This document shows positions 1-17,800 of a stretch of 64,000 bases of DNA, one piece after another. The stretch is from a virus (lineage: Duplodnaviria > Caudoviricetes). Under the pieces are notes generated by a model that searched no databases, was not told the DNA's origin, and worked only from the letters and a program-made list of their open reading frames with translations. Position 1 is the stretch's first letter, and each line of letters begins with the position of its first letter. The stretch covers positions 16,503 to 80,502 of IMG/VR virus record IMGVR_UViG_3300037483_000378. One strand, written 5' to 3'. Both the position numbers and the translations under genes were made by a program.

Positions 1-45
1 GATGGACACCTCGTGGTTCGGCGTGCTGGGCGAGTACGAGTCCAT
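1..45 (-). CDS. partial hypothetical protein (runs off window start)
   Basis: ATG at 45 with AGGAG RBS; MDSYSPSTPNHEVSI, open to edge. Confidence 0.4.
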   Translation of the reverse strand, partial: MDSYSPSTPNHEVSI

Positions 46-255
46 GGTGATGCTCCTTTGGTTTTGCGCCGCTCATCGGCGGCAGTGAAGTAGTCAGCCG
101 ATCCCGTTCCTACGCTGCGCGTCAGCCAGCGCGCGTCGTCGTCGTGCTCATGGTGTTTCCTCTCCGCTTCGGGAGTCGTGATCGCCGGGGCCGCCCCCCG
201 GTAGGGCCGTACCTGCTAAGGAGCGGCAGGGGGTCGAACCCTGCCGCCCGATGAA

Positions 256-588
256 CTACGCGGACGCGAGCCTGCCGCCGCGCTCGCTGAACGCTACCCA
301 CTCCGGCCCCTTCGCGTGCGACCGCTTCCGATCGTACGTGCCGAAGTGCGCGCCCCACGTCCCGCCGTCGCGGCGGGTCAGCCAGAGGCACCGCCCTTCG
401 ATCGGCCAGTGGTAGGAGTTCGGCACCCAGCCGTCGAGGTAGATCGTCACTCTCACGATGCGCTGGTCCTTGGCGATGGCGGCCCAAAGCCCAACGCTGG
501 CCACCGGCTCCACTGCCTCCGCTTCTCCGATGATGAGCAGTCGCGCCGTCACCGTTGCCGTTGCCTGCCTCTGCGTTGTCGCGTTCAT
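256..588 (-). CDS. hypothetical protein (110 aa)
   Basis: ATG 588 preceded by GAGGAG; MNATTQRQAT...; C-terminal part of ORF 256..987. Confidence 0.6.
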   Translation of the reverse strand: MNATTQRQATATVTARLLIIGEAEAVEPVASVGLWAAIAKDQRIVRVTIYLDGWVPNSYHWPIEGRCLWLTRRDGGTWGAHFGTYDRKRSHAKGPEWVAFSERGGRLASA

Positions 589-629
589 CGTCTGCTCCTC
601 GTTGTGCCGCTCATTGGCGGCGTTGAACC

Positions 630-656
630 AAAAAGGACGCGCGCGGGTGCACGCGT
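630..656 (-). terminator. putative intrinsic terminator
   Basis: minus strand ACGCGTG-loop-CGCGCGT followed by CCTTTTT. Confidence 0.55.
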
Positions 657-665
657 ATAAAGGTA

Positions 666-741
666 TGCGGGCTGGAGGGAGTCGAACCCTCATGCCGGGA
701 ACCGCCCTGGGCTCCCTGGCCGCCTCCGCAGGCCAGCCCGC
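666..741 (-). ncRNA. tRNA-like RNA, 8-bp acceptor stem, no canonical anticodon loop
   Basis: GCGGGCTG/CAGCCCGC-A acceptor; T-arm GAGGG-TTCGACT-CCCTC; stem GGAGCC/GGTTCC with 6-nt loop CAGGGC. Confidence 0.55.
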
Positions 742-1389
742 TGAAATCTCTCCCTCTGTTCGCCCGCTGCCGCTGTCGGTCCGGTCCGTGTGGTGCGCCG
801 TTTTCCCCCTCGCCGCCTCCGTTGCGCTTGTGTGGCTCATTGGCCGCGCGGGCTGTCGCGATTCGTGTGGTGGGGATAGGTCGCCGGGTCCGGCTGTCGC
901 CGTGGCGTGCGGGCTCCGTCGGGAGTCCCGTGTACCTCTACCGTGCCGCCTCCGCTTCTGCTGCGCCGAACTCCGAAGGCTCATCACCTTCGGCTACTCG
1001 GCGCCTGACGCTTCCTCGCGTGGGGCTCTTCGGTGCCACCGTGTCACGCTGTCGCCGCTTCTTTTGGGGCGCGGCCTCGAAGGCTCTCGAATCCGCCCGG
1101 GGCGTTTGCGTCGGTGGTCTTGTCGTGAGGTTCGCTGCGTACGCAGCGCCGAGTCTCCTGCCCTCGGTCTTGGCCGGTGCCAGCCTATTGGGTCCCGTCC
1201 GACCCTCACCGCCCTGTTTCGCTCGGGCGGCCAGCGGCGGGGTTCCTCTCGTCCGGCATCCCTGGCCGGGGGTCCCGCTTCCTGCCTACAATAATAATGG
1301 GGGCGCCCCCCAATAGCTAGCCCCATAATCACATTGCGCCGCAACGACTTACGGTCATCGGCCTTTCGCGGAAGTGCCGCATAGGCACG

Positions 1390-1426
1390 AAAAGGTGGCC
1401 ACGGCCCCCTATAGTAGTAGGCCACC
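1390..1426 (-). terminator. putative terminator downstream of tRNA array
   Basis: GGTGGCC...GGCCACC stem (19-nt loop) followed by TTTT. Confidence 0.4.
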
Positions 1427-1458
1427 GCCCCGGACGGGCCTGGACCACCTGGTCACCA

Positions 1459-1532
1459 TCGGGGCGGCCGGACTCGAACCGGCGACCCTCTGCTCCCAAA
1501 GCAGATGCGCTGCCCAACTGCGCCACGCCCCG
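1459..1532 (-). tRNA. tRNA-Pro(TGG)
   Basis: full cloverleaf; TCTGC-TT TGG GA-GCAGA. Confidence 0.95.
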
Positions 1533-1540
1533 TCTTTCCA

Positions 1541-1622
1541 TGCGAGCGGGGGGACTCGAACCCCCATGGCCATCGGCCACGAGCTTCTAAGGCTCGCGCG
1601 TCTGCCGTTTCGCCACGCTCGC
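1541..1622 (-). tRNA. tRNA-Leu(TAG)
   Basis: class II cloverleaf; CGAGC-CT TAG AA-GCTCG. Confidence 0.95.
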
Positions 1623-1628
1623 GCGCTC

Positions 1629-1648
1629 ACTCGGGTTTCGTGGTAAGG
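1629..1648 (+). repeat. 20-bp inverted repeat, left copy
   Basis: ACTCGGGTTTCGTGGTAAGG; exact reverse complement at 5452-5471. Confidence 0.9.
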
Positions 1649-1654
1649 GGAAGA

Positions 1655-1728
1655 TGCCCTCGGCCGGACTCGAACCGGCTGCCTCGCGCTTAGGGGGCGC
1701 GCGCTCTGTCCGGTTGAGCTACGAAGGC
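1655..1728 (-). tRNA. tRNA-Arg(CCT)
   Basis: cloverleaf; CGCGC-CC CCT AA-GCGCG (C33); 5' end overlaps the HNH ORF end. Confidence 0.9.
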
Positions 1729-2321
1729 GTCGGGTCGAACAGCTCCTCGACCGCAGCGCGCGCCTCATCGCCGAGCCGCCCAAGGAATACCTCGGCACGC
1801 GTCATCGCCCGCGGCTTCCGGCGCAGGTACATCCGTGCCTCAGCCGGCGTGCGGTTGTCCTTCCGCGCGTTGCACGTCGAGCAGGCGGTCACGGTGTTCT
1901 CGTACACGTTGCGCCCGCCGCGTGACTCCGGCGTCACGTGGTCGATGGTGAGGAACTCGCCCGCCGCCGTGAGCCGAATCGTCTCCGTGCCGTAGCGCAC
2001 CATGACGTCACGCCGTCCGTGCCCGCGCGCAAGATCGCTCTCGTGCCGCCCGCAGTACATGCAGCGGTGCCCGTCCCGTAGGTAGACGTTCCCGCGCGTC
2101 CAGGACGCGCGACCGAACACCACCCCTGCGAAGTCAGCGAGCGCCTCAAGCACGATCACGACTGGGGCCGGGACGCGCACGCGGCCGTCCGCATTCCGGA
2201 ACACGCGGGTCGGGTGATCCCTCAACGACTGCGCCTTGCCCTCCAAGAGCAGGAGCACCGCGCGGTTGACCGGGATCTCGTCGATCGGCGCGAAGCTCGG
2301 GGCCAATACCAGGGTCTTCAT
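1719..2321 (-). CDS. HNH endonuclease (McrA-like, Zn-binding)
   Basis: RDGHRCMYCG...TIDHVTPESRGG...NTVTACSTCNARKDN motifs. Confidence 0.9.
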   Translation of the reverse strand: MKTLVLAPSFAPIDEIPVNRAVLLLLEGKAQSLRDHPTRVFRNADGRVRVPAPVVIVLEALADFAGVVFGRASWTRGNVYLRDGHRCMYCGRHESDLARGHGRRDVMVRYGTETIRLTAAGEFLTIDHVTPESRGGRNVYENTVTACSTCNARKDNRTPAEARMYLRRKPRAMTRAEVFLGRLGDEARAAVEELFDPTPS

Positions 2322-2385
2322 CTTCGTCTCATCGTGCGATCAGTTGAAGGGTGGAACAGCAGCGCGCACCGTGCGCGCAGGGAAA

Positions 2386-2472
2386 CGGAGCGGGTGGGAT
2401 TCGAACCCACGGGGCGCGAACGCCCTCCGGTTTTCAAGACCGGTGCGATAGGCCGGGCTCTGCCACCGTTCC
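2386..2472 (-). tRNA. tRNA-Ser(TGA)
   Basis: class II; CCGGT-CT TGA AA-ACCGG; G73. Confidence 0.95.
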
Positions 2473-2474
2473 AG

Positions 2475-2545
2475 AGATGCCGCCCGGAGTCGAACCGGGC
2501 CTGACGGGTTTGCAGTCCGTCGCCTCGCCGCTCGGCATCGGCACC
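2475..2545 (-). tRNA. tRNA-Cys(GCA)
   Basis: ACGGA-CT GCA AA-CCCGT; U73. Confidence 0.9.
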
Positions 2546-2552
2546 ACGAACA

Positions 2553-2625
2553 AGCGCGCGACGGGTTTCGAACCCGTGGCCTCGAGCTTGGGAAGCTCGC
2601 GCTCTACCGACTGAGCTACGCGCGC
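2553..2625 (-). tRNA. tRNA-Gly(CCC)
   Basis: CGAGC-TT CCC AA-GCTCG; U73. Confidence 0.95.
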
Positions 2626-2629
2626 GAAG

Positions 2630-2710
2630 TGCGTCCGGCAGGACTCGAACCTGCAAGCCAGAAGGCACTCGCTTTTGAGGCGAGCGCGTAGACCATTCCG
2701 CCACGGACGC
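2630..2710 (-). tRNA. tRNA-Leu(CAA)
   Basis: class II; CTCGC-CT CAA AA-GCGAG. Confidence 0.95.
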
Positions 2711-2716
2711 AAGAAG

Positions 2717-2801
2717 TGCTGGCGGGGAGACTCGAACTCCCACGGGCCGAAGCCCCGAGCGTTTTTAGGACGCCCACGTCTGCCGGTTCCGCCACGCCAG
2801 C
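2717..2801 (-). tRNA. tRNA-Leu(TAA), C33 variant
   Basis: class II; GGCGT-CC TAA AA-ACGCT. Confidence 0.85.
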
Positions 2802-2808
2802 GAAGAAA

Positions 2809-2892
2809 CGGATGGAGCGGGATTCGAACCCGCGCGGGGTCACCCCCAACGCCTTAGCAGGGCGTCGCCTTCAGCCACTCGGCCACCCATCC
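2809..2892 (-). tRNA. tRNA-Ser(GCT)
   Basis: class II; ACGCC-CT GCT AA-GGCGT. Confidence 0.95.
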
Positions 2893-2896
2893 AAAG

Positions 2897-2981
2897 TGCT
2901 CGCGCCCGGATTCGAACCGGGATGCCGTCGCCGGCACGGCGCCCTGAACGCCGCGCGTCTGCCAAGTTTCGCCACGCGAGC
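2897..2981 (-). tRNA. tRNA-Leu(CAG)
   Basis: class II; CGGCG-TT CAG GG-CGCCG. Confidence 0.95.
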
Positions 2982-2983
2982 AA

Positions 2984-3066
2984 TGCGCACGGAGGGATTC
3001 GAACCCTCACGCCTCAATGGCACGGCCCCCTCAAGACCGCGTGTCTACCAGCTCCACCACGTGCGC
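2984..3066 (-). tRNA. tRNA-Leu(GAG)
   Basis: class II; CGGTC-TT GAG GG-GGCCG. Confidence 0.95.
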
Positions 3067-3076
3067 GCATACCCTA

Positions 3077-3150
3077 CGGCCCCGCCCGGACTCGAACCGG
3101 GAACGACGCGGTTCCAAAGACCGCCGCCTCTGCCATTCGGCCACGGGGCT
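3077..3150 (-). tRNA. tRNA-Gln(TTG)
   Basis: GCGGT-CT TTG GA-ACCGC; A1.C72 mismatch, G73. Confidence 0.9.
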
Positions 3151-3164
3151 CCTACTCTGCGAAG

Positions 3165-3239
3165 TCTGGGGGGTGGGATTCGAACCCACGACCTCCGCGT
3201 CCCGAACGCGGCGCGCTGGCCGGACTGCGCTACTCCCAG
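3165..3239 (-). tRNA. tRNA-Pro(CGG)
   Basis: CCGCG-TT CGG GA-CGCGG. Confidence 0.95.
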
Positions 3240-3246
3240 ATGATGA

Positions 3247-3320
3247 TGGGCCCGCCGGGACTCGAACCCGGGACCGTCGCCTTATGAGGGCGCCGCTCTA
3301 CCGGACTGAGCTACGGGCCC
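3247..3320 (-). tRNA. tRNA(CAT), probably Ile2 (lysidine)
   Basis: CT CAT AA loop; C4-G69 and C5-G68 pairs as used by TilS; A73. Confidence 0.8.
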
Positions 3321-3325
3321 GAAAA

Positions 3326-3400
3326 TGCCCAGGGAGGGAATCGAACCCCCGGCCTCCTGCTTGTAAGACAGGCGCTCTCCGCTTGCTGAGCTACCCGGGC
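3326..3400 (-). tRNA. tRNA-Val(TAC)
   Basis: CCTGT-CT TAC AA-GCAGG. Confidence 0.95.
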
Positions 3401-3422
3401 GGTGCTGTCGTGATGAAACCAG

Positions 3423-3497
3423 ACCGAGGAACGGGATTCGAACCCGCGGCCTTCGCCATGGCAAGGCGACGCTCTGGCCGGACTGAGCTATCCTCGG
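3423..3497 (-). tRNA. tRNA-Gly(GCC)
   Basis: TCGCC-TT GCC AT-GGCGA; U73. Confidence 0.9.
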
Positions 3498-3503
3498 AAG
3501 TGA

Positions 3504-3614
3504 GCGTGTTGGGGAACATGCGGCAACGGAGAGCCGGTTGCCCGGCGAGTCCAGGCGATGCCTGGTTGCTTTCGTTATGAGCGAAGTAACCGTCACCTTT
3601 CGCCACCGACACGC
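3504..3614 (-). ncRNA. unassigned multi-stem RNA with CTCATAA loop
   Basis: ends pair (GCGTGT/ACACGC); D-arm-like TGGCGAAAGGTGACG; TTCG-CTCATAA-CGAA; two more hairpins; no T-loop. Confidence 0.5.
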
Positions 3615-3615
3615 A

Positions 3616-3689
3616 TAGCGGGAGAGGGATTTGAACCCTCGACCTTCAGCTTATGAGGCTGACGAGCTACCAGGCTGCTCTATCCCGCT
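3616..3689 (-). tRNA. tRNA-Met(CAT), initiator-like scaffold
   Basis: fMet-type D-arm GAGCAGCCTGGTAGCTC and TTCAAAT T-loop, but A1-U72 and TCAGC/GCTGA anticodon stem. Confidence 0.85.
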
Positions 3690-3695
3690 GATAAA

Positions 3696-3781
3696 TGGAC
3701 CCGGCTGGATTTGAACCAGCGTGCACCACATGGCCTCCCGTTTATCAGACGGGCGCTCTGACCGGACTGAGCTACGGGTCC
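3696..3781 (-). tRNA. tRNA-Ile(GAT) with 16-nt variable region
   Basis: CCCGT-CT GAT AA-ACGGG, then AGGCCATGTGGTGCAC before the T-arm. Confidence 0.85.
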
Positions 3782-3787
3782 AACTGA

Positions 3788-4173
3788 TGGAGGCGGCGGG
3801 AGTCGAACCCGCGTCCGTTCACGCTTCCAAGTCGTGACTTCTAGTGCGATTGTCGCGTTTCGAGTTTCTCACCCAAACTAACGTCCTCGGATGAGGCGGG
3901 GCTCTCGCGGTGCGCCAGACCTACTACCCCTCCGAAGGGTGAGCCCCCTTCAGGTGGCCTCGTCTTTCCGAGTGCCCATCTGGCTGATCGACGTTCTCTA
4001 AGCGACACCAGAATGATCACGAAGAGAACGGGAGACTTACGCTGCCTTGCGGAGCGGCTCCGAGTTGAGATCGCTGTTCGCGTTTCTCGGTTGTCCTAGC
4101 GCGTTAGCGACTGAGCTAGGATCGTCGCGCACATCACTTCCTTTCCACGAAACGTCGAAACCTTTACGCCCCC
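3788..4173 (-). ncRNA. ssrA: tmRNA
   Basis: 5' GGGGGCGTAAAGGTTTCGAC; 3' GGACGCGGGTTCGACTCCCGCCGCCTCCA with G3.U70; tag ORF 4081-4037 ANSDLNSEPLRKAA*. Confidence 0.95.
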
Positions 4174-4198
4174 GTTTTTCATTCCCCCCCCCCAACCA

Positions 4199-4270
4199 TG
4201 GAGCTGGCGGGGATCGAACCCGCGGCGTCCGCCATGCGAAGACGGCGCTCTCCCTCTGAGCTACAGCCCC
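4199..4270 (-). tRNA. tRNA-Ala(CGC)
   Basis: G3.U70; CCGTC-TT CGC AT-GGCGG. Confidence 0.95.
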
Positions 4271-4273
4271 TCA

Positions 4274-4347
4274 AGCCAACGCCCGGCATCGAACCGGGGA
4301 CCTTCCGCTTACAAGGCGGGTGCTCTGCCTAGCTGAGCTACGTTGGC
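4274..4347 (-). tRNA. tRNA-Thr(TGT)
   Basis: CCCGC-CT TGT AA-GCGGA. Confidence 0.95.
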
Positions 4348-4354
4348 GCGTTCT

Positions 4355-4427
4355 GCGCGGAACCGGCGACTGTCCCCTCTTCGGTGTCTTTCGACCGTCC
4401 GGTACGGAATGTCCATCCGGTCCGCGC
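4355..4427 (-). ncRNA. unassigned structured RNA in tRNA array
   Basis: closing helix GCGCGGA-CCGG/CCGG-TTCCGCGC; inner TCCG-TAC-CGGA and TC-GAAA-GA hairpins. Confidence 0.4.
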
Positions 4428-4432
4428 GTATA

Positions 4433-4519
4433 CGGAGCGGGAAGGATTCGAACCTTCGTGCCCACGTGGGGCTCTCGCTTTCGGGGCGAGCGCGTTTGGC
4501 CTGGCTCCGCCACCGCTCC
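4433..4519 (-). tRNA. tRNA-Ser(CGA), C33 variant
   Basis: class II; CTCGC-CC CGA AA-GCGAG; G73. Confidence 0.9.
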
Positions 4520-4526
4520 ATCGAAG

Positions 4527-4599
4527 TTGCCCCACCAGGATTCGAACCTGGAACCTCCGCGTCCAGAGCGCGGCGCGCTGCCAGTTGTGCTATGGGGCA
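4527..4599 (-). tRNA. tRNA-Gln(CTG)
   Basis: U1-A72; CCGCG-CT CTG GA-CGCGG. Confidence 0.95.
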
Positions 4600-4610
4600 A
4601 TGTGAAGAAG

Positions 4611-4686
4611 GGTGACCGACGGGATTTGAACCCGCGATCTCCGGGGCCACGGCCCGGCGCTTTCGGCCGACTAAGCTACGATCACC
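4611..4686 (-). tRNA. tRNA-His(GTG), C33 variant
   Basis: encoded G-1 pairing with C73; CCGGG-CC GTG GC-CCCGG. Confidence 0.9.
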
Positions 4687-4693
4687 ATTGAAG

Positions 4694-4768
4694 TGCGCCC
4701 GGAGGGATTCGAACCCCCGACCTCCTGATCCGTAGTCAGGCGCTCCGTCCAGACTGAGCTACGGGCGC
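4694..4768 (-). tRNA. tRNA-Arg(ACG)
   Basis: CCTGA-CT ACG GA-TCAGG. Confidence 0.95.
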
Positions 4769-4776
4769 AAGGTAGG

Positions 4777-4864
4777 CACGAGACGCGGTCTGACGGAGCC
4801 CCGCCACGGGAGTCGAACCCTGCCGCGCCCCGTGCCATCACGGCCGCCCATGAGACCGACCGTG
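4777..4864 (-). ncRNA. T-arm-containing tRNA mimic (Y-RNA-like candidate)
   Basis: ends pair (CACG/CGTG, CGGTCT/AGACCG); CCGTG-ATGG-CACGG hairpin; GGG-TTCGACT-CCC T-loop. Confidence 0.45.
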
Positions 4865-4868
4865 TAAA

Positions 4869-4941
4869 AGCTGCGAGCGGGAGTTGAACCCACGACCTCC
4901 TGCTTACGGGGCGGCGCTCTCCCGTGCTGAGCTATCGGAGC
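4869..4941 (-). tRNA. degenerate tRNA-Thr(CGT), possible pseudo-tRNA
   Basis: CCGC-CC CGT AA-GCAGG (1 nt short in stem, C33); C.C mismatch in acceptor. Confidence 0.6.
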
Positions 4942-4944
4942 AAG

Positions 4945-5018
4945 TCTGGACGGCGGGACTCGAACCCGCGACCCCTGGTCCCCCAGACCAGTGCGCTACC
5001 GGGCTGCGCCACGTCCAG
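4945..5018 (-). tRNA. tRNA-Pro(GGG)
   Basis: CTGGT-CT GGG GG-ACCAG. Confidence 0.95.
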
Positions 5019-5023
5019 AAGAG

Positions 5024-5096
5024 TACCCCGAGCGCGACTCGAACGCGCGACCTTCTGCTTCGGAGGCAGACGCTCTGTCCGCTGAGCTATCGGGGC
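5024..5096 (-). tRNA. tRNA-Arg(CCG)
   Basis: TCTGC-CT CCG AA-GCAGA. Confidence 0.95.
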
Positions 5097-5103
5097 GAAA
5101 AAA

Positions 5104-5177
5104 CGGGACCGGAAGGAATCGAACCCTCGACCTCTCGTTCTGGAGACGAGCGCTCTACCAGCGTGAGCTACGGACCC
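5104..5177 (-). tRNA. tRNA-Trp(CCA)
   Basis: CTCGT-CT CCA GA-ACGAG; G73. Confidence 0.95.
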
Positions 5178-5181
5178 GAAG

Positions 5182-5256
5182 TGTGCGCGGACGGAGTTGA
5201 ACCGCCGACAACCTGGCTCTTCACGCCAGTGCTCTACCACGCTGAGCTACGCGCAC
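5182..5256 (-). tRNA. tRNA-Phe(GAA)
   Basis: CTGGC-GT GAA GA-GCCAG (G32, G37). Confidence 0.9.
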
Positions 5257-5259
5257 GCA

Positions 5260-5331
5260 TACCCCCACGGGGAATCGAACCCCGGTCGCCACCTTGAAAG
5301 AGTGGTGTCCTGGCCGCTAGACGATGAGGGC
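5260..5331 (-). tRNA. tRNA-Glu(TTC)
   Basis: CCACT-CT TTC AA-GGTGG. Confidence 0.95.
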
Positions 5332-5338
5332 AAAGGCA

Positions 5339-5411
5339 TACCTCCGGGCGGAATTGAACCGCCGTTCCCGCCGTGAGAGGGCAGCGTCCTGGGCCACTAG
5401 ACGACGGAGGC
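5339..5411 (-). tRNA. tRNA-Glu(CTC)
   Basis: CTGCC-CT CTC AC-GGCGG. Confidence 0.95.
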
Positions 5412-5418
5412 ATTGCTG

Positions 5419-5450
5419 GGCATGCCGAGGTGTTCCGGCCTCGGCATGCC
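5419..5450. repeat. perfect 12-bp hairpin at 5' leader of tRNA array
   Basis: GGCATGCCGAGG-N8-CCTCGGCATGCC. Confidence 0.8.
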
Positions 5451-5451
5451 A

Positions 5452-5471
5452 CCTTACCACGAAACCCGAGT
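5452..5471 (-). repeat. 20-bp inverted repeat, right copy (also extended -10-like TGGTAAGGT)
   Basis: CCTTACCACGAAACCCGAGT on plus strand = reverse complement of 1629-1648. Confidence 0.9.
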
Positions 5472-5609
5472 TGTCGATCAGCGCACCCACCTAAGCCAAG
5501 CGCCCCGCCTCCCGTTGCTCGTGGGGGGCGGGGCGCTGGCCCTTCCGCGCTTCCGAGGGTTCGCGCCCGTTACGGCACTCGCCCCCCCCCCGCCATCCCG
5601 GTATTCGGC

Positions 5610-5795
5610 TCATCTGCTTCCGGCTCCATGACGAGACCGGACCAGGGCAGTCGCCCGTGCGACCGTCGCTGGCATGGGCCGAAGACCACGATGACGCGAC
5701 TCGCCGCCGCTCGCCCTGTCGGGCTTGCGGTCCTGCGTGAGCCGGTATGCGTGGCCGTCGCGAGCATCGAGGGCTCTCTCCGTGATGGTGGTCAT
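5610..5795 (-). CDS. small hypothetical protein
   Basis: ATG with AGAGG RBS, downstream of promoter-like motif. Confidence 0.35.
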   Translation of the reverse strand: MTTITERALDARDGHAYRLTQDRKPDRASGGESRHRGLRPMPATVARATALVRSRHGAGSR

Positions 5796-5809
5796 GCCTC
5801 TGCGTGGGG

Positions 5810-5838
5810 AGCATAACCCCCCGACGGCCCGGCGTAAA
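5810..5838 (-). promoter_or_regulatory. sigma70-like promoter
   Basis: TTTACG-17 nt-TATGCT; same -35 and GGGT-TAT at 36939-36967. Confidence 0.5.
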
Positions 5839-5944
5839 GTACCGCCACGGCCCCGCCGTCAGGCTTGGGGGCACGATGGGGGCGTCGGGATAGGCTTATG
5901 CGTGGCCCCCTAACGCCGCACCCCTTTAGGGGGCAGCCCACGCC

Positions 5945-6289
5945 TCACTCGTATCCGGGCTCGACGATGACGGTGAGCCAGCTGCGACCTGGATGCCGAG
6001 TCGTGTCCCCGTCATTCCACGTGGCCAGCACGTAGCACTGATACGTGCCGGGCGCGTCGAACGCGTTACCTCCACCCAGCTTGGCATCCACGGGATCGAA
6101 GACGAGCCCCAGGGTCACGGACGGCGACGGAGTGAGGGCACCAGCAGTGACGTGATTCGCGCTCTCGCCAGCCAACCGCGCGTACAGCACCGCACTCGTC
6201 AGATCATCCAAATTCGCGAGCCCGGTTGCCGAGATCGTGAGTACCAACGGTTCTGTGTCGGCGGGCTTGAGTCGAATCGTGTCAGGCAT
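5945..6289 (-). CDS. BppU-N/Ig-like virion protein
   Basis: IRLKPADTEPLVLTI...FDAPGTYQCYVLATW...LTVIV pattern. Confidence 0.55.
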   Translation of the reverse strand: MPDTIRLKPADTEPLVLTISATGLANLDDLTSAVLYARLAGESANHVTAGALTPSPSVTLGLVFDPVDAKLGGGNAFDAPGTYQCYVLATWNDGDTTRHPGRSWLTVIVEPGYE

Positions 6290-6296
6290 GATTGGT

Positions 6297-6512
6297 CTAG
6301 CTCCATGTCGCTGATCTAGCTGGGTCTATGATGGATGCGGTTCTGAGGGGATCCGTTAGGCTCGCGGCACGGCGCGGATCTACCCAGTCCGCGAGGTATG
6401 GCGGGAGAATCGATATCACTTCCTGAGCCGCAGCCCACGATGTGTCCGTCCACGTGGCAGCGGCCCATGTACCAGTGGCCCAACACGACCCTGCGGAACC
6501 AGGGAACGGCAT
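6297..6512 (-). CDS. small Trp-rich virion-associated protein
   Basis: tightly packed between neighbours; CWATGTWAAATWTDTSW. Confidence 0.55.
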   Translation of the reverse strand: MPFPGSAGSCWATGTWAAATWTDTSWAAAQEVISILPPYLADWVDPRRAASLTDPLRTASIIDPARSATWS

Positions 6513-6515
6513 GGC

Positions 6516-7910
6516 TTACGCCGGCCCCCACTCGTTGCCATCGACCCCGGTGCCTGTTAGGCCCGTGCCGTTCACGCTTTGCACGTTGGCGTCCACTTCG
6601 CCAGCCTTCGTGAAAGTCAAGCTGTCGGTCTTCGCCTTGATCGCGTCCACCACGGTGTCCACGGTCGCCAGGTTCGCCGCCGTGGCGAGCGCCGCGTCCG
6701 TGATGGCGGTGTCCACCTCGGCATTGACTTCGGCTGCCGTCAGGTCGTTGAGCGCGCTCACCTCGCTCGACAGCGCGTGGGCCTGTACCTCCTCCCCGAA
6801 GCTGCCGGCCGCGACATGGCCCGCCTTGGCCTCATCCCACACCCCGTCCGAGACCTGCGCCACGGTGGGCACGGCCGCCGTCACGTCGGCGCTGGACAGG
6901 TCGTTGAGGGCCGCGACGCCACCCTGCGTGGTCGCGTGCTGCGCGTCCTGTGCGGTGTCGAGCGCGTCCAGCGTGGTGATCGTGCCGGCGACTCCGCCGA
7001 CGGTGCCCGTGACGCTCCCCACCGCGCCGGTCACTGAGCCCACCGCGCCGGTCACGCTCCCGACCGACCCCGACAGGTCGCCCGTGATGTTCGCCGTCTG
7101 GTTGCCGAGGCCGGTCGTGGCCGTGAGGCTGTAGCCGGTCTTCGACCCTGCGGCCACCACGACGCCAGCGGTCCCGGTGTCATCGAGGATCGCGGCCGTA
7201 TCGACCTTGACCGCCGCCACGTCCGCGGAGACCGACGCGCCGGCCGGTGCACCGAGCCGAGCGAACACGTCGCCCGTCAGGTAGTCCACCAGCCGCTTCC
7301 CGATGGAGCCGACCGTGGTGAGCGCGGAGGACAGCGCGTCCCACACCGCCTGCACCCCTGCGGCCGACAGCGCGTATCCCGTCTTGCTCGCCGCCGCCAC
7401 CACGACGCCGTCCGTACCGGTGTCGAGGAGGATGGCGTCTACGACCCCGTCCACGGTGGCCAGAGCCGTCGCGGTGGCGATGTCCTGGGCCGCACCACCG
7501 ACCAGCGTGACGTCTATCTCCGGCACCCCAGCGACGGTCGGGGTCGCCGCGGCGGTCCCGAGCCACTGCGTCACGCTCACGTCGAGCACGTCCGAGCCGG
7601 CGACAATCGAATCGTACACGTTGGCGGGCAGAACCAGGAACTCGTGCCAGACCGGGAGATGCGTGGCGGCGTCATGCACCTTCAGCACGAGACTTCCGAG
7701 CGTGTTGGTGTGCGTCGTGGTGAGGGTGACGGGATACCATCCATCGGAGTCGTAGGTCCCGAGCACTGGCCCGGCGCCGTAGGCTCCGCCGGCCTTGCTG
7801 ATCTCGGTCCCGGCACCCGCGAGTCCGGCCTCCTCGGTGACGCCGTCCGTCTTGTCGAGGCACGGCCCGATGCGCTCCGTTACTTCCGTCGACTGCTTGA
7901 GGAGTCTCAT
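6516..7910 (-). CDS. Ala/Thr/Gly-rich virion structural protein (fiber/decoration-like)
   Basis: 464 aa; GSVTGAV and ALNDLS/T repeats. Confidence 0.65.
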   Translation of the reverse strand: MRLLKQSTEVTERIGPCLDKTDGVTEEAGLAGAGTEISKAGGAYGAGPVLGTYDSDGWYPVTLTTTHTNTLGSLVLKVHDAATHLPVWHEFLVLPANVYDSIVAGSDVLDVSVTQWLGTAAATPTVAGVPEIDVTLVGGAAQDIATATALATVDGVVDAILLDTGTDGVVVAAASKTGYALSAAGVQAVWDALSSALTTVGSIGKRLVDYLTGDVFARLGAPAGASVSADVAAVKVDTAAILDDTGTAGVVVAAGSKTGYSLTATTGLGNQTANITGDLSGSVGSVTGAVGSVTGAVGSVTGTVGGVAGTITTLDALDTAQDAQHATTQGGVAALNDLSSADVTAAVPTVAQVSDGVWDEAKAGHVAAGSFGEEVQAHALSSEVSALNDLTAAEVNAEVDTAITDAALATAANLATVDTVVDAIKAKTDSLTFTKAGEVDANVQSVNGTGLTGTGVDGNEWGPA

Positions 7911-8680
7911 ACTCGCATCCTACGATAAGAGTGCATGGCAACGGGGACCGAAAGTCCACCACCAACCGCAACCGGCGCGAACCGCTGCTTGGCAGCGCCC
8001 CACCTCCGCAGCGGCGCGTGTTCCGACGCCGTTGCGTCCGTGACCGTACCGGTCTTGCCGTTCCCGGAGTAGTCGAGCACCGCGCCCGTCGTGCGGGGAT
8101 CACCGACCAGGAGCGCCGTGCTCCGCTGCCATGAGGATATCCCGCCCCGCACGATTTCGTTGATCTGCGCGAGCGTCAGCGCCTCAGAGTAGATCGCGTA
8201 CCGGCTCAGGTCGCCGTCGCACGATAGGCCGCCACCAGCATCGTAATTGCCCATCCACGAGGTAACCCCCGCAGCAGACGGCGTAGTGCCGTCCGTTTGT
8301 AGCGCATAGGTGACTTCCGCGAGATCGCTCCCCAGCGTGCCGGTGTACAGACGGACGTGTGACCCAGCCGCCGCCGCCGCATCAAACGTGACGGCGACAA
8401 GGTACGTGGTCCCGGCAGCGAATACGCTCCCAACCGAATAGTAGTCGTGCGACCCCCACGAAAAGCGCAGGGACCCCGCCCCACCGTACCCACCGATATT
8501 GTCAATGGACACGAAACGGTTGCCGCCCCCATCCGAACACGACCAGACCAGCCGGAACGTAGACCCGTCGATCGTGCCGGGCCGAAACACGAAGAGCCAT
8601 GTGTTCGGGCCGCCGACAATCCCGACGTCGCCGTGGTCTACTCGCCGAGCGCTACCGGTGGGAGCGAAATTCAGAGCCAC
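7907..8680 (-). CDS. LamG/ConA-like lectin-domain virion protein
   Basis: TYLVAVTFD...RLYTG...GDLSRYAIYSEALTLAQI LamG pattern. Confidence 0.75.
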   Translation of the reverse strand: MALNFAPTGSARRVDHGDVGIVGGPNTWLFVFRPGTIDGSTFRLVWSCSDGGGNRFVSIDNIGGYGGAGSLRFSWGSHDYYSVGSVFAAGTTYLVAVTFDAAAAAGSHVRLYTGTLGSDLAEVTYALQTDGTTPSAAGVTSWMGNYDAGGGLSCDGDLSRYAIYSEALTLAQINEIVRGGISSWQRSTALLVGDPRTTGAVLDYSGNGKTGTVTDATASEHAPLRRWGAAKQRFAPVAVGGGLSVPVAMHSYRRMRV

Positions 8681-14850: not shown

Positions 14851-17800
14851 CTAAGCCGAGGAACTGTCAACGACCAGGCCCAACCCACTGAGCCCCGTGA
14901 GCAAGCTCGCCAGAGCGGCAACCCCTCCACGACTGCCCGAGACGGTCGGTACACCGGACCCACCCGCACCGAAAAACGCAAGCGTGGACGACGGGTTGAT
15001 TGCGACGACGGCGGCTACGAGGTTTATCCCATCGTTCGCGTGATCGAGCGTCATATACTGCCGCGTCGTCGTGCCATCGTAACTCTCGATCAGCCCCAGC
15101 GGTGGGCTTCCGGCGTCGTGCTTCCACATGTAGTACGGGTTGCTCCCCGCGGGAGCCCCCAGTTTTCCGAAGCGGAACGCCTCCCCTGTGTCCTTGAACA
15201 CCGATACCACGTTCGCGGCATCGATTTGCCCGCCTGTCTTCACCGCGTACCCACCCGGAGACAGATCCACGTAGTAGTCGGTCCCGTCCGCGAAAAACCC
15301 GATCAGCTTGACCCAAGAGCCGCCGAAGTACGTCTGCTCTCCGTAGAGGTAGTGGTCCTCCTTCAATCCGATGTTTTCGACGGGTACGCCGGACGCAGCC
15401 ACGGTCGGCGTGCCGAGGATCAGGCGCGCTCCGTCTACGGTAACCTGCGTCACCCGTGCGGCGTAGGCCAGAATAAGTTCTTGCGCGGTGTGCTTGAACC
15501 GCAGATAGGTCCGAATGTTTGTGAGGTCGTAGGACTCGAAAAGCGCAGACGCCGGCGTATCACTTTCGGTCTTGAACGCATACTGCGGTTCATTGGCGAG
15601 GGGCGCTGAGTCCTTGCCGAATACCAAGTGCTCGTGCTGACTCCCGAGCGCCCCCCACGTTGACCAGACAATCCCTTTCGTGCGGTTGTTGACCTGGATG
15701 GTGTTGTCGTTGTCCTGAAAATCAGGGTCCACGACGCCGGTCGCGTGTGAGTCGTCGGTCACAAGGTCAATGCGGTTGTTCGTGGATGGGTCGCCCGGGT
15801 ACCCAGTGTCGATCACGGCCCACGGCTGCACGTAGAGAAGCCCCTCGTCACCAACCATCTGCGCGCGGATGATGTTGTTGTGGGCATCGAAGAACTTGAG
15901 CCCGGCCTCCTGGTTGCTCATCGAGCGGATATCCAGATTACAGTCCGTCGCGAACACGAGCGCGAACCCGGAAGAGTAGTTTTCCTGCGCCTGAAGGACG
16001 GCCCCGTGGACGCCTTGGGCGGTGACGAGCCACCCGTGCCCCTGGTCCGTCGCTGCATCCTGGCCGTTGCCGAACGATTTACAGTCGGAGTACCTGTCGT
16101 TGGTCCCGTTGGCCACAATTCCAGAAAGGCCAGAATGAGCAACAACGATGCCGTGATGGGTATTGTCGGTCCCCCCGGCGGGCCATGTAAATATTCCGTG
16201 CCTGCCGGAGTTTCTGATTACCACGTCACGGACACTGACCTCGCGGCAGGTGAGACCCTTGAGCAGGCCCCACCCGGAGACGTTGTCGATCAGGACGTGG
16301 TCGAGGAACTGGTGGGAGTCGTTGTACTCGACGCTCGCCGGTGTCGCGGTCAGGAGCACGCCCGGGTTGTAGGCTATCTGGTTCGCCTTGTTGCCGTCAA
16401 TGCGGATGTTGCGCACACCCCATTGCCCGTCGGTCGCACTCTCCGACACCACGACGGGAAGCCCTTCAAGAATCTCATAGGTGATCGTGCCTGGCGTGCC
16501 ACCGAACGGGTCGGTGCCCACACCAGACTCCATCCCGATTGTAAGTTGTGTGGCGGTGTTGGCGGTGATGACGCGCGCTTCGCCACTGAGCGGCCCGCTG
16601 GTAATGCGAGCCGTCCGCATCTTGTGTTCGTCCACCGTCCACGTTTTCCCGGTGTCGTTTAGCGTAGAAGTAGTGTTGCCCCCCGTGGACGTGCCCGAGT
16701 CGATCGTCGTGTGCGCGTTCGCTGCCTGTATGAGCTTGGAGCCCCACCCGTCTCCGCAAATCTCCACGCCCTTCTTCATCGTGAGCGATGACACCTGCAC
16801 GATACCGCCCGCAAAAATCTTCCCGCCGCCAAGCGCAAAAGCCTCATCCACGAGACTCTGCATTTCCGTTGTGTTGTTCGTGGCGCCAGTGATGTCCACT
16901 CCGGCCACGCTCGCATCGAAGAAGACGCCAATCCGCGCTTGGCCGGTGATGGGATCGTCCCCTACGGAGAGCCCCCGACTCAGCATCAGGATTTCGTCGG
17001 TGACGTGCCCGTCGCCATCCACGTCGGTGATGATCGTGCGGATGGACTCGCTTCCGAGCGGGAGAGTCGTCTCCTGCGCAGGTCCCGCATTGCCCGTACC
17101 GAGGTCCGCGCTCACGTCGTCATACGGCGTGACCGTCGCGACCGTCGTCGCGTCCGGGTCGAATCCGTAGACGGTCGCCACGACGCCGTCCTTGGCGGCA
17201 ATGTCCTCCCGAGTCACCACCGCAGGGTCCGCGCCCACGACCACGGAAACCAATAGGCTCTTGACACCATCCGTCTCGCACTGAAAGTGAAGGTCCAACT
17301 CTACGACGGAAAACACTCCGTATGTGGCAACGCGACGCTCCAGCCACACGCTCTTGAGTGCGTTCCGCAAAAACCCGAACGGAATACTCCGCTGAATGGG
17401 CGACGACTTCACGGCGGCCGCCTGCGCGGTGTACGTCGTGCCCACGCAGTTGAACGTCCACCCGGACAGGTACAGTTCCTCGCCGTCCTTCAGCGCGACG
17501 ATGCCCGAGAGCACCGCCGAAAGCTGCACCTGCGTGCCGAAGCCCGTACCCACCAGCGTCGCCACGCCCACGTCCGTATCGTTGGCGAGCGACGGGTCCG
17601 CGTAGGCGTCCGTACCCGCCGCCGCGATCACCGCCTTGAAGCGATACGACAGACTGTCGGTGTCTATGGCGCGGGGCGTCGCGTAGGTTTCGTTCGTGGC
17701 GTCCGTAGTCAGGTCCACGTCGCCGCTCGGGAACACGTCGGAATCCGACTCGCGATACACCACCTCGGAGACAAGCGCCGGAGTGCTGTCGTCCTCCGCA

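Follow-up and report, generated by a model that had tools for sequence, protein, structure and literature searches.

The 64,000-nt stretch analysed here, referred to as the window, comprises positions 16,503 to 80,502 of the IMG/VR record IMGVR_UViG_3300037483_000378, an uncultured phage record of the class Caudoviricetes with 66.6% G+C, and carries a large tRNA array framed by a perfect 20-bp inverted repeat. Every credible open reading frame (ORF) and every tRNA gene of the genome is located on the minus strand. In the direction of transcription, genes for a DnaB-type helicase, the terminase, portal, head, tape measure and tail proteins precede the tRNA array, and genes for a MoxR-type ATPase, a DUF2201-like protein and then RecE/RecT-like proteins lie 3' of it. 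No close cultured phage was found; a megablast search against cultured phages matched single tRNAs only.

The block between the repeats (1655–5412, minus strand) contains 29 tRNA genes, a gene for transfer-messenger RNA (tmRNA; 3785–4173, minus strand, 81 bits in Rfam) and an ORF of 200 amino acids encoding an HNH endonuclease (1719–2321, minus strand, Pfam HNH E=5e-12), the last 10 nt of which overlap tRNA-Arg-CCT. The repeat itself, the 20-mer ACTCGGGTTTCGTGGTAAGG, occurred at 1629–1648 on the plus strand and in inverted orientation at 5452–5471 on the minus strand, with 0 mismatches and with 3803 nt separating the two arms. A repeat search revealed this pair as the sole perfect long inverted repeat in positions 1–8000. 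No third copy with up to three mismatches was detected in the window (0 of 100 shuffles matched) and no third copy was present in the whole 80,502-base record. The repeat around the HNH gene, 29 tRNAs and tmRNA, proposed in the initial annotation, was confirmed in every detail, and the frequent genome-wide occurrence named there as a sign of an ordinary promoter motif was not the case, with exactly two copies in the 80.5-kb record.

The coordinates of tRNAs and ORFs also bore out the statement that both copies are located in spacers, and not within genes, with two tRNAs left outside. The right arm lies 39 nt upstream, in the minus-strand sense, of tRNA-Glu-CTC (5338–5412), the first tRNA of the array. 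Because all credible ORFs and tRNAs are on the minus strand, the arm at 5471–5452 falls in the leader, and as the putative 5' strand of a long-range helix (5452–5471, minus strand) it reads ACUCGGGUUUCGUGGUAAGG in the RNA sense. The left arm, the putative 3' or trailer strand (1629–1648, minus strand), reads CCUUACCACGAAACCCGAGU and occupies the 32-nt spacer between tRNA-Arg-CCT (1655–1728) and tRNA-Leu-TAG (1541–1622); most spacers of this array are 2–10 nt long. The genes of tRNA-Leu-TAG and tRNA-Pro-TGG (1459–1622, minus strand) remain outside the arms here and in every relative. A terminator-like hairpin with a T-run located 3' of tRNA-Pro-TGG (1312–1298, minus strand) is the likely end of the array transcript.

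Leader–spacer complementarity in related arrays

No relatives were retrieved from IMG/VR with the exact 20-mer, the HNH protein, an HNH alignment or the portal protein. Syntenic arrays were found via homologues of the HNH protein, 12 of which (60–77% identity) were identified in a large protein collection, on contigs carrying arrays with the order Glu-CTC, Glu-TTC, Phe, Trp, Arg-CCG, Pro-GGG ... Cys, Ser-TGA, HNH, Arg-CCT, a long spacer, Leu-TAG and Pro-TGG. A metagenome scan with the HNH alignment added one short contig to those already known, and a scan of genome contigs gave no match. Four further arrays were complete from the leader to the spacer, namely L069 (91-kb contig), L086, L072 (89.8 kb) and L073, and in all four the order of the tRNAs of the enclosed block was the same as in the window. 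L069 and L086 have a common leader arm, and hence four lineages were counted, including the window. Partial contigs contributed the leader only (L090 and L098) or the spacer only (L070, L071, L074, L077, L078, L079 and L087). The Arg-CCT/Leu-TAG spacer was 25–51 nt long in all relatives, and the segment spanned by the arms extended from 3.8 kb in the window up to 6.3 kb in the relatives.

The 20-mer itself was absent from every relative. Each of them, however, carried at the matching place in the leader a stretch complementary to its own Arg-CCT/Leu-TAG spacer. Lack of conservation in relatives had been named in advance as an argument against a function of the repeat; this held for the sequence but not for the pairing, and pairing kept without the sequence constitutes stronger evidence. 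The cognate duplexes of the window, L069, L086, L072 and L073, each formed by an arm of 26–30 nt and its own spacer, comprised 20–23 pairs with energies of -41 to -47 kcal/mol, whereas non-cognate duplexes across lineages mostly reached -16 to -25 kcal/mol. The exception was the arm of L072 (-34 to -38 kcal/mol), which is G-rich and shares the conserved outer third of the arm. The cognate pair was the best in every row and every column of the energy matrix, and the cognate energies were 4.6–5.9 standard deviations below the mean of shuffled spacers (z about -4.6 to -5.9).

The per-position table of pairs revealed compensatory double changes at no fewer than 10 of the first 20 helix positions across the four lineages. 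Positions 2, 6, 8, 12 and 14 were invariant, whereas the pair at position 10 appeared as T-A, T-G, C-G or G-C, at position 11 as C-G, T-A or A-T, at position 15 as G-C, T-A or A-T and at position 17 as A-T or T-A. Mismatches and a bulge were present in the arms of the relatives. When the arm was slid along both strands of all sequence available for each phage (the full 80.5 kb for the window), its top partner after its own antisense was in each phage the Arg-CCT/Leu-TAG spacer on the tRNA-sense strand. All 20 pairs of 5471–5452 with 1629–1648 also formed in the minimum free energy (MFE) structure of a transcript modelled over 4.2 kb; no meaning attaches to the remaining long-range pairs of this structure. 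These comparisons show a genuine and specific complementarity that four lineages have preserved through compensatory change.

A second short conserved word, CAGGACGTTGGCTGAAA, was observed in the Arg-CCT/Leu-TAG spacer of L074 (2195–2218) and L087, and in L077 (590–612) it was added after a normal trailer arm.

Elements of the leader

The five leaders aligned into four elements: hairpin 1, a short box, the arm and hairpin 2. Hairpins 1 and 2 were present in the centroid structure of every leader in local folds. The box and the arm were unpaired in the centroids of the window and L073, and in the other three leaders they were covered by a weak local stem that was not conserved.

Hairpin 1 (5493–5542, minus strand) is a G+C-rich stem-loop with a near-invariant sequence, GCGCCCCGCC...GGAGGCGGGGCGCTT, found once per locus, and its GGAGGCGGGGCGCTT part was identical in the window, L069, L072, L073 and L086. 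It was near-identical although the HNH proteins of these phages are just 70–77% identical and the adjoining spacers have diverged. The hairpin occupies a boxB-like position or could be the terminator of the upstream late genes; because its conservation exceeds the needs of a plain terminator, it may be a protein-binding, boxB-like element. A small ORF located upstream of the leader did not encode a conserved protein.

The box of 11 nt (5472–5482, minus strand) lies about 20 nt after hairpin 1, with the arm directly 3' of it, and was kept in all leaders. It reads GCTGATCGACA in the window, where it is unique, GTTGATTGACA or GCTGATTGACA in three contigs and GCTTTTTGAAA in L073. For comparison with boxA elements, at which NusB and NusE bind, 20 16S loci of Planctomycetota served as a reference, the phylum having been chosen on a weak hint (the source label Phycisphaerae of an L069-type contig). 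GNTCTTTGAMA was identified in 19 of these 20 rrn leaders, 79–308 nt before the 16S gene, and this consensus agrees with GYTCTTTAANA of the gamma-proteobacteria (PMC5725501). The phage boxes (GCTGATYGACA or GCTTTTTGAAA) showed 3, 2, 2 and 1 mismatches to the Planctomycetota consensus, which may not be the consensus of the host, and matched individual rrn boxA sequences of the sample at up to 10 of 11 positions. The C of position 4, a critical base in E. coli (PMC5725501), was replaced in every phage box, and since it is never kept, the element is called boxA-like here and its identity as a boxA is unproven. A search of 185,579 genomes with the box pattern was uninformative, with at least 120 scattered matches against about 140 expected by chance by our own estimate.

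In the arm, the outer third was conserved and the inner two thirds varied. Hairpin 2 (5419–5450, minus strand), located between the 5' arm and tRNA-Glu-CTC, comprised 10–15 pairs and ended 4–8 nt before tRNA-Glu, and its sequence was unrelated in each lineage. The preservation of this structure with unrelated sequence indicates that selection acted at the RNA level in the leader. Taken together, the aligned leaders point to a conserved architecture with an rrn-like layout of a hairpin, a boxA-like box, the arm and a second hairpin.

A probable leader–trailer helix and its alternatives

Of the three readings offered by the initial annotation, the leader–trailer stem as in rRNA operons gained support from the pairing kept in four lineages and from the rrn-like layout of the leader. 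We regard it as rather probable that the two arms are the strands of a leader–trailer helix in the precursor of the tRNA array, formed in cis and acting in its maturation. In rrn operons, the leader carries boxB, boxA and boxC and pairs with the trailer across 1.5–2.9 kb (PMC10250234), and the duplex so formed undergoes RNase III processing (PMC10250234; PMC6582327). These helices covary, need more than about 17 bp and sit 3' of boxA; RNase III cuts them, but they also have a role that does not depend on this enzyme, and it has been hypothesised that Nus factors bound to boxA keep boxC close to the RNA exit channel up to the emergence of the trailer (PMC10250234). The phage locus resembles them in having on the transcribed strand a leader and a trailer that are complementary and surround kilobases of stable-RNA genes, a helix of 20–25 bp (above the criterion of about 17 bp) that covaries while its flanks diverge, the order of hairpin, boxA-like box and 5' strand, and a long untranslated enclosed RNA, which would need protection from Rho.

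According to the proposed mechanism, the array would be transcribed on the minus strand with a leader carrying hairpin 1, the boxA-like box, the 5' arm and hairpin 2, the arm being presumably a part of the transcript. After 3.8 kb, or as much as 6.3 kb in relatives, the spacer 3' of Arg-CCT would emerge and form a duplex of 20–25 bp with the 5' arm. The boxA-like box might recruit host Nus factors that would shield the long untranslated transcript from Rho; such an array, being long and untranslated, makes a plausible target of Rho, so that an antitermination signal at its head would make sense. The same factors may retain the leader close to the RNA exit channel while the trailer is still to be made, as hypothesised for rrn operons, and host RNase III could then cut the duplex and free the array segment from the flanking RNA. 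Alternatively, the helix might serve folding or protection, as a clamp whose action requires no cutting, a role demonstrated for the E. coli 16S helix. The broader proposal, put forward tentatively and judged somewhat less probable than its opposite, is that this uncultured phage group co-opted the rrn transcription and processing machinery, with a boxA-type signal recruiting Nus factors and a covarying helix closing an array of 4–6 kb and 30–40 tRNAs for RNase III or chaperoning.

As proposed, the helix works like an rrn helix and is not a member of the rrn class, because it encloses 29–39 tRNAs, the HNH mRNA and, in the window, a tmRNA, and no rRNA. It differs further in being phage-borne, in its span of 3.8–6.3 kb, in an arm that abuts the box (in Enterobacteriaceae, 18–19 nt separate boxA from boxC) and in the deviation of the box from rrn boxA at positions 4–5. 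Cutting by RNase III is known for rrn helices and is a prediction for the phage helix. Nut sites of the lambda type, in which boxA and a boxB hairpin serve processive antitermination, resemble the locus in that a boxA-like box carried by a phage stands, with a hairpin close by, at the start of a long unit of transcription. The phage has no identified N-like protein, however, its leader hairpin lies 20–25 nt downstream of the box, and nut sites are without a distant complementary partner.

To our knowledge, no long-range leader–trailer helix has been described for the tRNA cluster of phage T4, which resembles the present locus in its polycistronic tRNA precursor and in the homing-endonuclease genes within the cluster. 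The T4 cluster is processed by RNase P, RNase E and other enzymes (review PMC3014915). No leader–trailer helix around a phage tRNA array, that of T4 included, was found in the searched literature, the coverage of which was incomplete. What is new here is the probable use of a known element, the rrn-type leader–trailer helix, for a phage tRNA array. The helix design is not universal among phage tRNA arrays, because the unrelated array of Synechococcus phage S-CBWM1, the one array sampled, had no comparable inverted repeat.

Several observations weigh against an RNA helix acting in cis. An RNA helix and a DNA inverted repeat homogenised by recombination cannot be told apart by compensatory change alone, and the independent lineages number only four. 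In an RNA-agnostic alignment, the excess of G.T-type over A.C-type mismatches (5–6 versus 2 independent events) was not significant; a G.U:A.C count of 9:1 obtained with RNAduplex was dropped as proof of RNA-level selection, being biased by the folding program. No sigma-70-type promoter for the array was detected in a consensus scan, and should TTGACA in the box serve as a -35 hexamer, transcription would start only past the arm, leaving it out of the RNA. The replaced C at boxA position 4 belongs here as well. The phage carries no RNase III gene, so that cleavage would need the host enzyme. Finally, tRNAs are normally excised co-transcriptionally by RNase P, and for this reason a cis helix over 4–6 kb requires either a held leader or action in trans.

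Action in trans is the best surviving alternative, although an unlikely one. RNase P, cutting at the 5' end of tRNA-Glu-CTC, would free the leader, and the fragment with the box, the arm and hairpin 2 would act as an antisense RNA on the Arg-CCT/Leu-TAG spacer, its target being either the processing of the junction or downstream expression (Leu-TAG, Pro-TGG and, in relatives, the Ro/TROVE module). The same covariation applies to this variant, hairpin 2 would stabilise the leader fragment, and the kinetic problem of a 4–6-kb cis loop over tRNAs under excision disappears. The present data separate it in nothing from the cis model, except that a boxA-like box adjoining the arm fits co-transcriptional action in cis better.

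Less probable still is an inverted repeat acting as DNA, either as crossover sites that flip the array, as in switches of the Hin/Gin/Cin or tyrosine-recombinase kind, or as paired sites of a co-evolving DNA-binding protein. Recombination sites would likewise be alike within a genome and different between lineages, the G.U bias, which would have been proof of selection on the RNA, was not significant, and the RecE/RecT-like proteins of the phage can use short homology. On the other hand, no serine or tyrosine recombinase (Resolvase and Phage_integrase domains) was found in the 80.5-kb record, which is 93% complete, and a single orientation was observed in all 7 leader-side and all 12 spacer-side junction contigs, which are assemblies and not reads. 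Each arm is non-palindromic over 20–25 bp, the arms of relatives tolerate mismatches and a bulge, and inversion would set every tRNA antisense to the single transcription direction of the genome.

The reading of the repeats as two promoters is very improbable. The array promoter would have its spacer and extended -10 in the right arm and TCGACA/TTGACA as its -35 hexamer, and the left arm would be a convergent antisense promoter. In the window, TGGTAAGGT indeed fits an extended -10 with TCGACA located 15 nt upstream, and TTGACA is conserved in relatives. The -10-like word TGGTAAGG was not conserved, however, being missing at the matching place in L069, L086 and L072, the consensus scan found no sigma-70-like site, and the downstream copy ends with TAAGGG and has no -35, which left the convergent promoters of the initial annotation unsupported. 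A better explanation of TTGACA is that it forms the 3' half of the boxA-like GNTNNTTGACA, and promoters give no reason for a covarying downstream spacer. The TTGACA of the box was accordingly rejected as a -35 hexamer, with no conserved -10 at 15–18 nt, no promoter in the scan and a resemblance to boxA.

Hardly credible is a mobile tRNA and HNH cassette with the arms as terminal repeats, moved by the HNH endonuclease, for which the HNH gene inside and other homing-endonuclease-like ORFs in the arrays of relatives could speak: every relative has its HNH gene between Ser-TGA and Arg-CCT, the tRNA order is unbroken past the left arm, no relative has an empty site bounded by the arms and we know of no use of terminal inverted repeats by HNH homing endonucleases. 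Together with the single orientation and the lack of a recombinase, these observations left the mobile or invertible cassette of the initial annotation without support. The distant phages sharing the downstream ATPase (four, 48–55% identity) carried no tRNAs and were uninformative on the boundaries of a cassette.

Array content and biological meaning

Beyond the putative leader–trailer helix, the arrays differed in content. At the junction of tRNA-Thr-CGT and tRNA-Pro-GGG (window 4941–4944), the relatives carry nine additional tRNAs (compare L069: 4870–5835), i.e., Thr-GGT, Tyr, Asn, Gly-TCC, Asp, Arg-TCT, Lys-CTT, Lys-TTT and Ala-TGC. Ser-GGA, located further along in the relatives, is also absent from the window, so that ten tRNAs are lacking in all and the phage is left without Tyr, Asn, Asp and Lys tRNAs. 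This loss was likely caused by a deletion between two Thr genes. The tmRNA of the window is located between tRNA-Ala-CGC and tRNA-Ile-GAT, where the relatives have a spacer of 3–11 nt. No tmRNA was found with Rfam in L069, L072 and L086, and an ARAGORN call in L072 was rejected as false, as it overlaps tRNAs; the tmRNA is a lineage-specific insertion. The gap between tRNA-Thr-CGT and tRNA-Arg-ACG, 100–123 nt long, was kept in all five arrays (window 4769–4868, L069: 5910–6032, L072: 7833–7933, L073: 7437–7558 and L086: 2449–2571). In the window it holds a T-arm-like sequence, GGGAGTCGAACCCT (4808–4821), and neither ARAGORN nor Rfam named a gene in it; it may be an unrecognised tRNA-like gene.

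The stop region of the HNH gene overlapped the first 10 nt of tRNA-Arg-CCT in the window (1719–1728), L069 (10591–10600) and L086 (5255–5264). In L073 the two genes abut, and in L072 a PDDEXK_5 ORF is inserted between them. Other endonuclease-like ORFs elsewhere in the arrays of relatives gave a faint LAGLIDADG_3 match or a PDDEXK_5 match (L069: 7392–8195 and L072: 10601–11227), and these arrays have been repeatedly colonised by selfish nuclease genes.

Directly after tRNA-Pro-TGG, four relatives (L069, L072, L074 and L086) carry a Ro60/TROVE gene (region L069: 10972–12548, L072: 11622–13022 and L086: 5648–7161; window counterpart 256–1300). A 71-nt tRNA-like call ('Gln-CTG'), possibly a Y-RNA-like partner of TROVE, stands in front of it in L069 and L086. 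The window phage has no TROVE gene anywhere, and at its position about 550 nt without a credible ORF and an odd tRNA-like sequence (666–741) were found. TROVE homologues of 64–66% identity occurred in phages without arrays, and the tail-fibre-like protein encoded upstream of the array (6516–7910) matched 61 mosaic loci, all of them without tRNA arrays.

The transcription and processing of large phage tRNA arrays are not addressed in the searched literature. An untranslated transcript of several kilobases should be a target of Rho, and its ends should be targets of exonucleases. A conserved leader–trailer helix combined with a boxA-like box would be a concrete answer to this problem, in which the arrays borrow the logic of rRNA operons. 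For annotation, it means that inverted repeats on either side of a tRNA array, even far apart, are not necessarily a sign of mobile DNA. Whether cleavage or a folding and holding role prevails is still open for the rrn helices (PMC10250234). Four phage lineages with different helix sequences would provide a clean natural system in which RNase III cleavage could be set against the function of such a helix as a folding or holding device.

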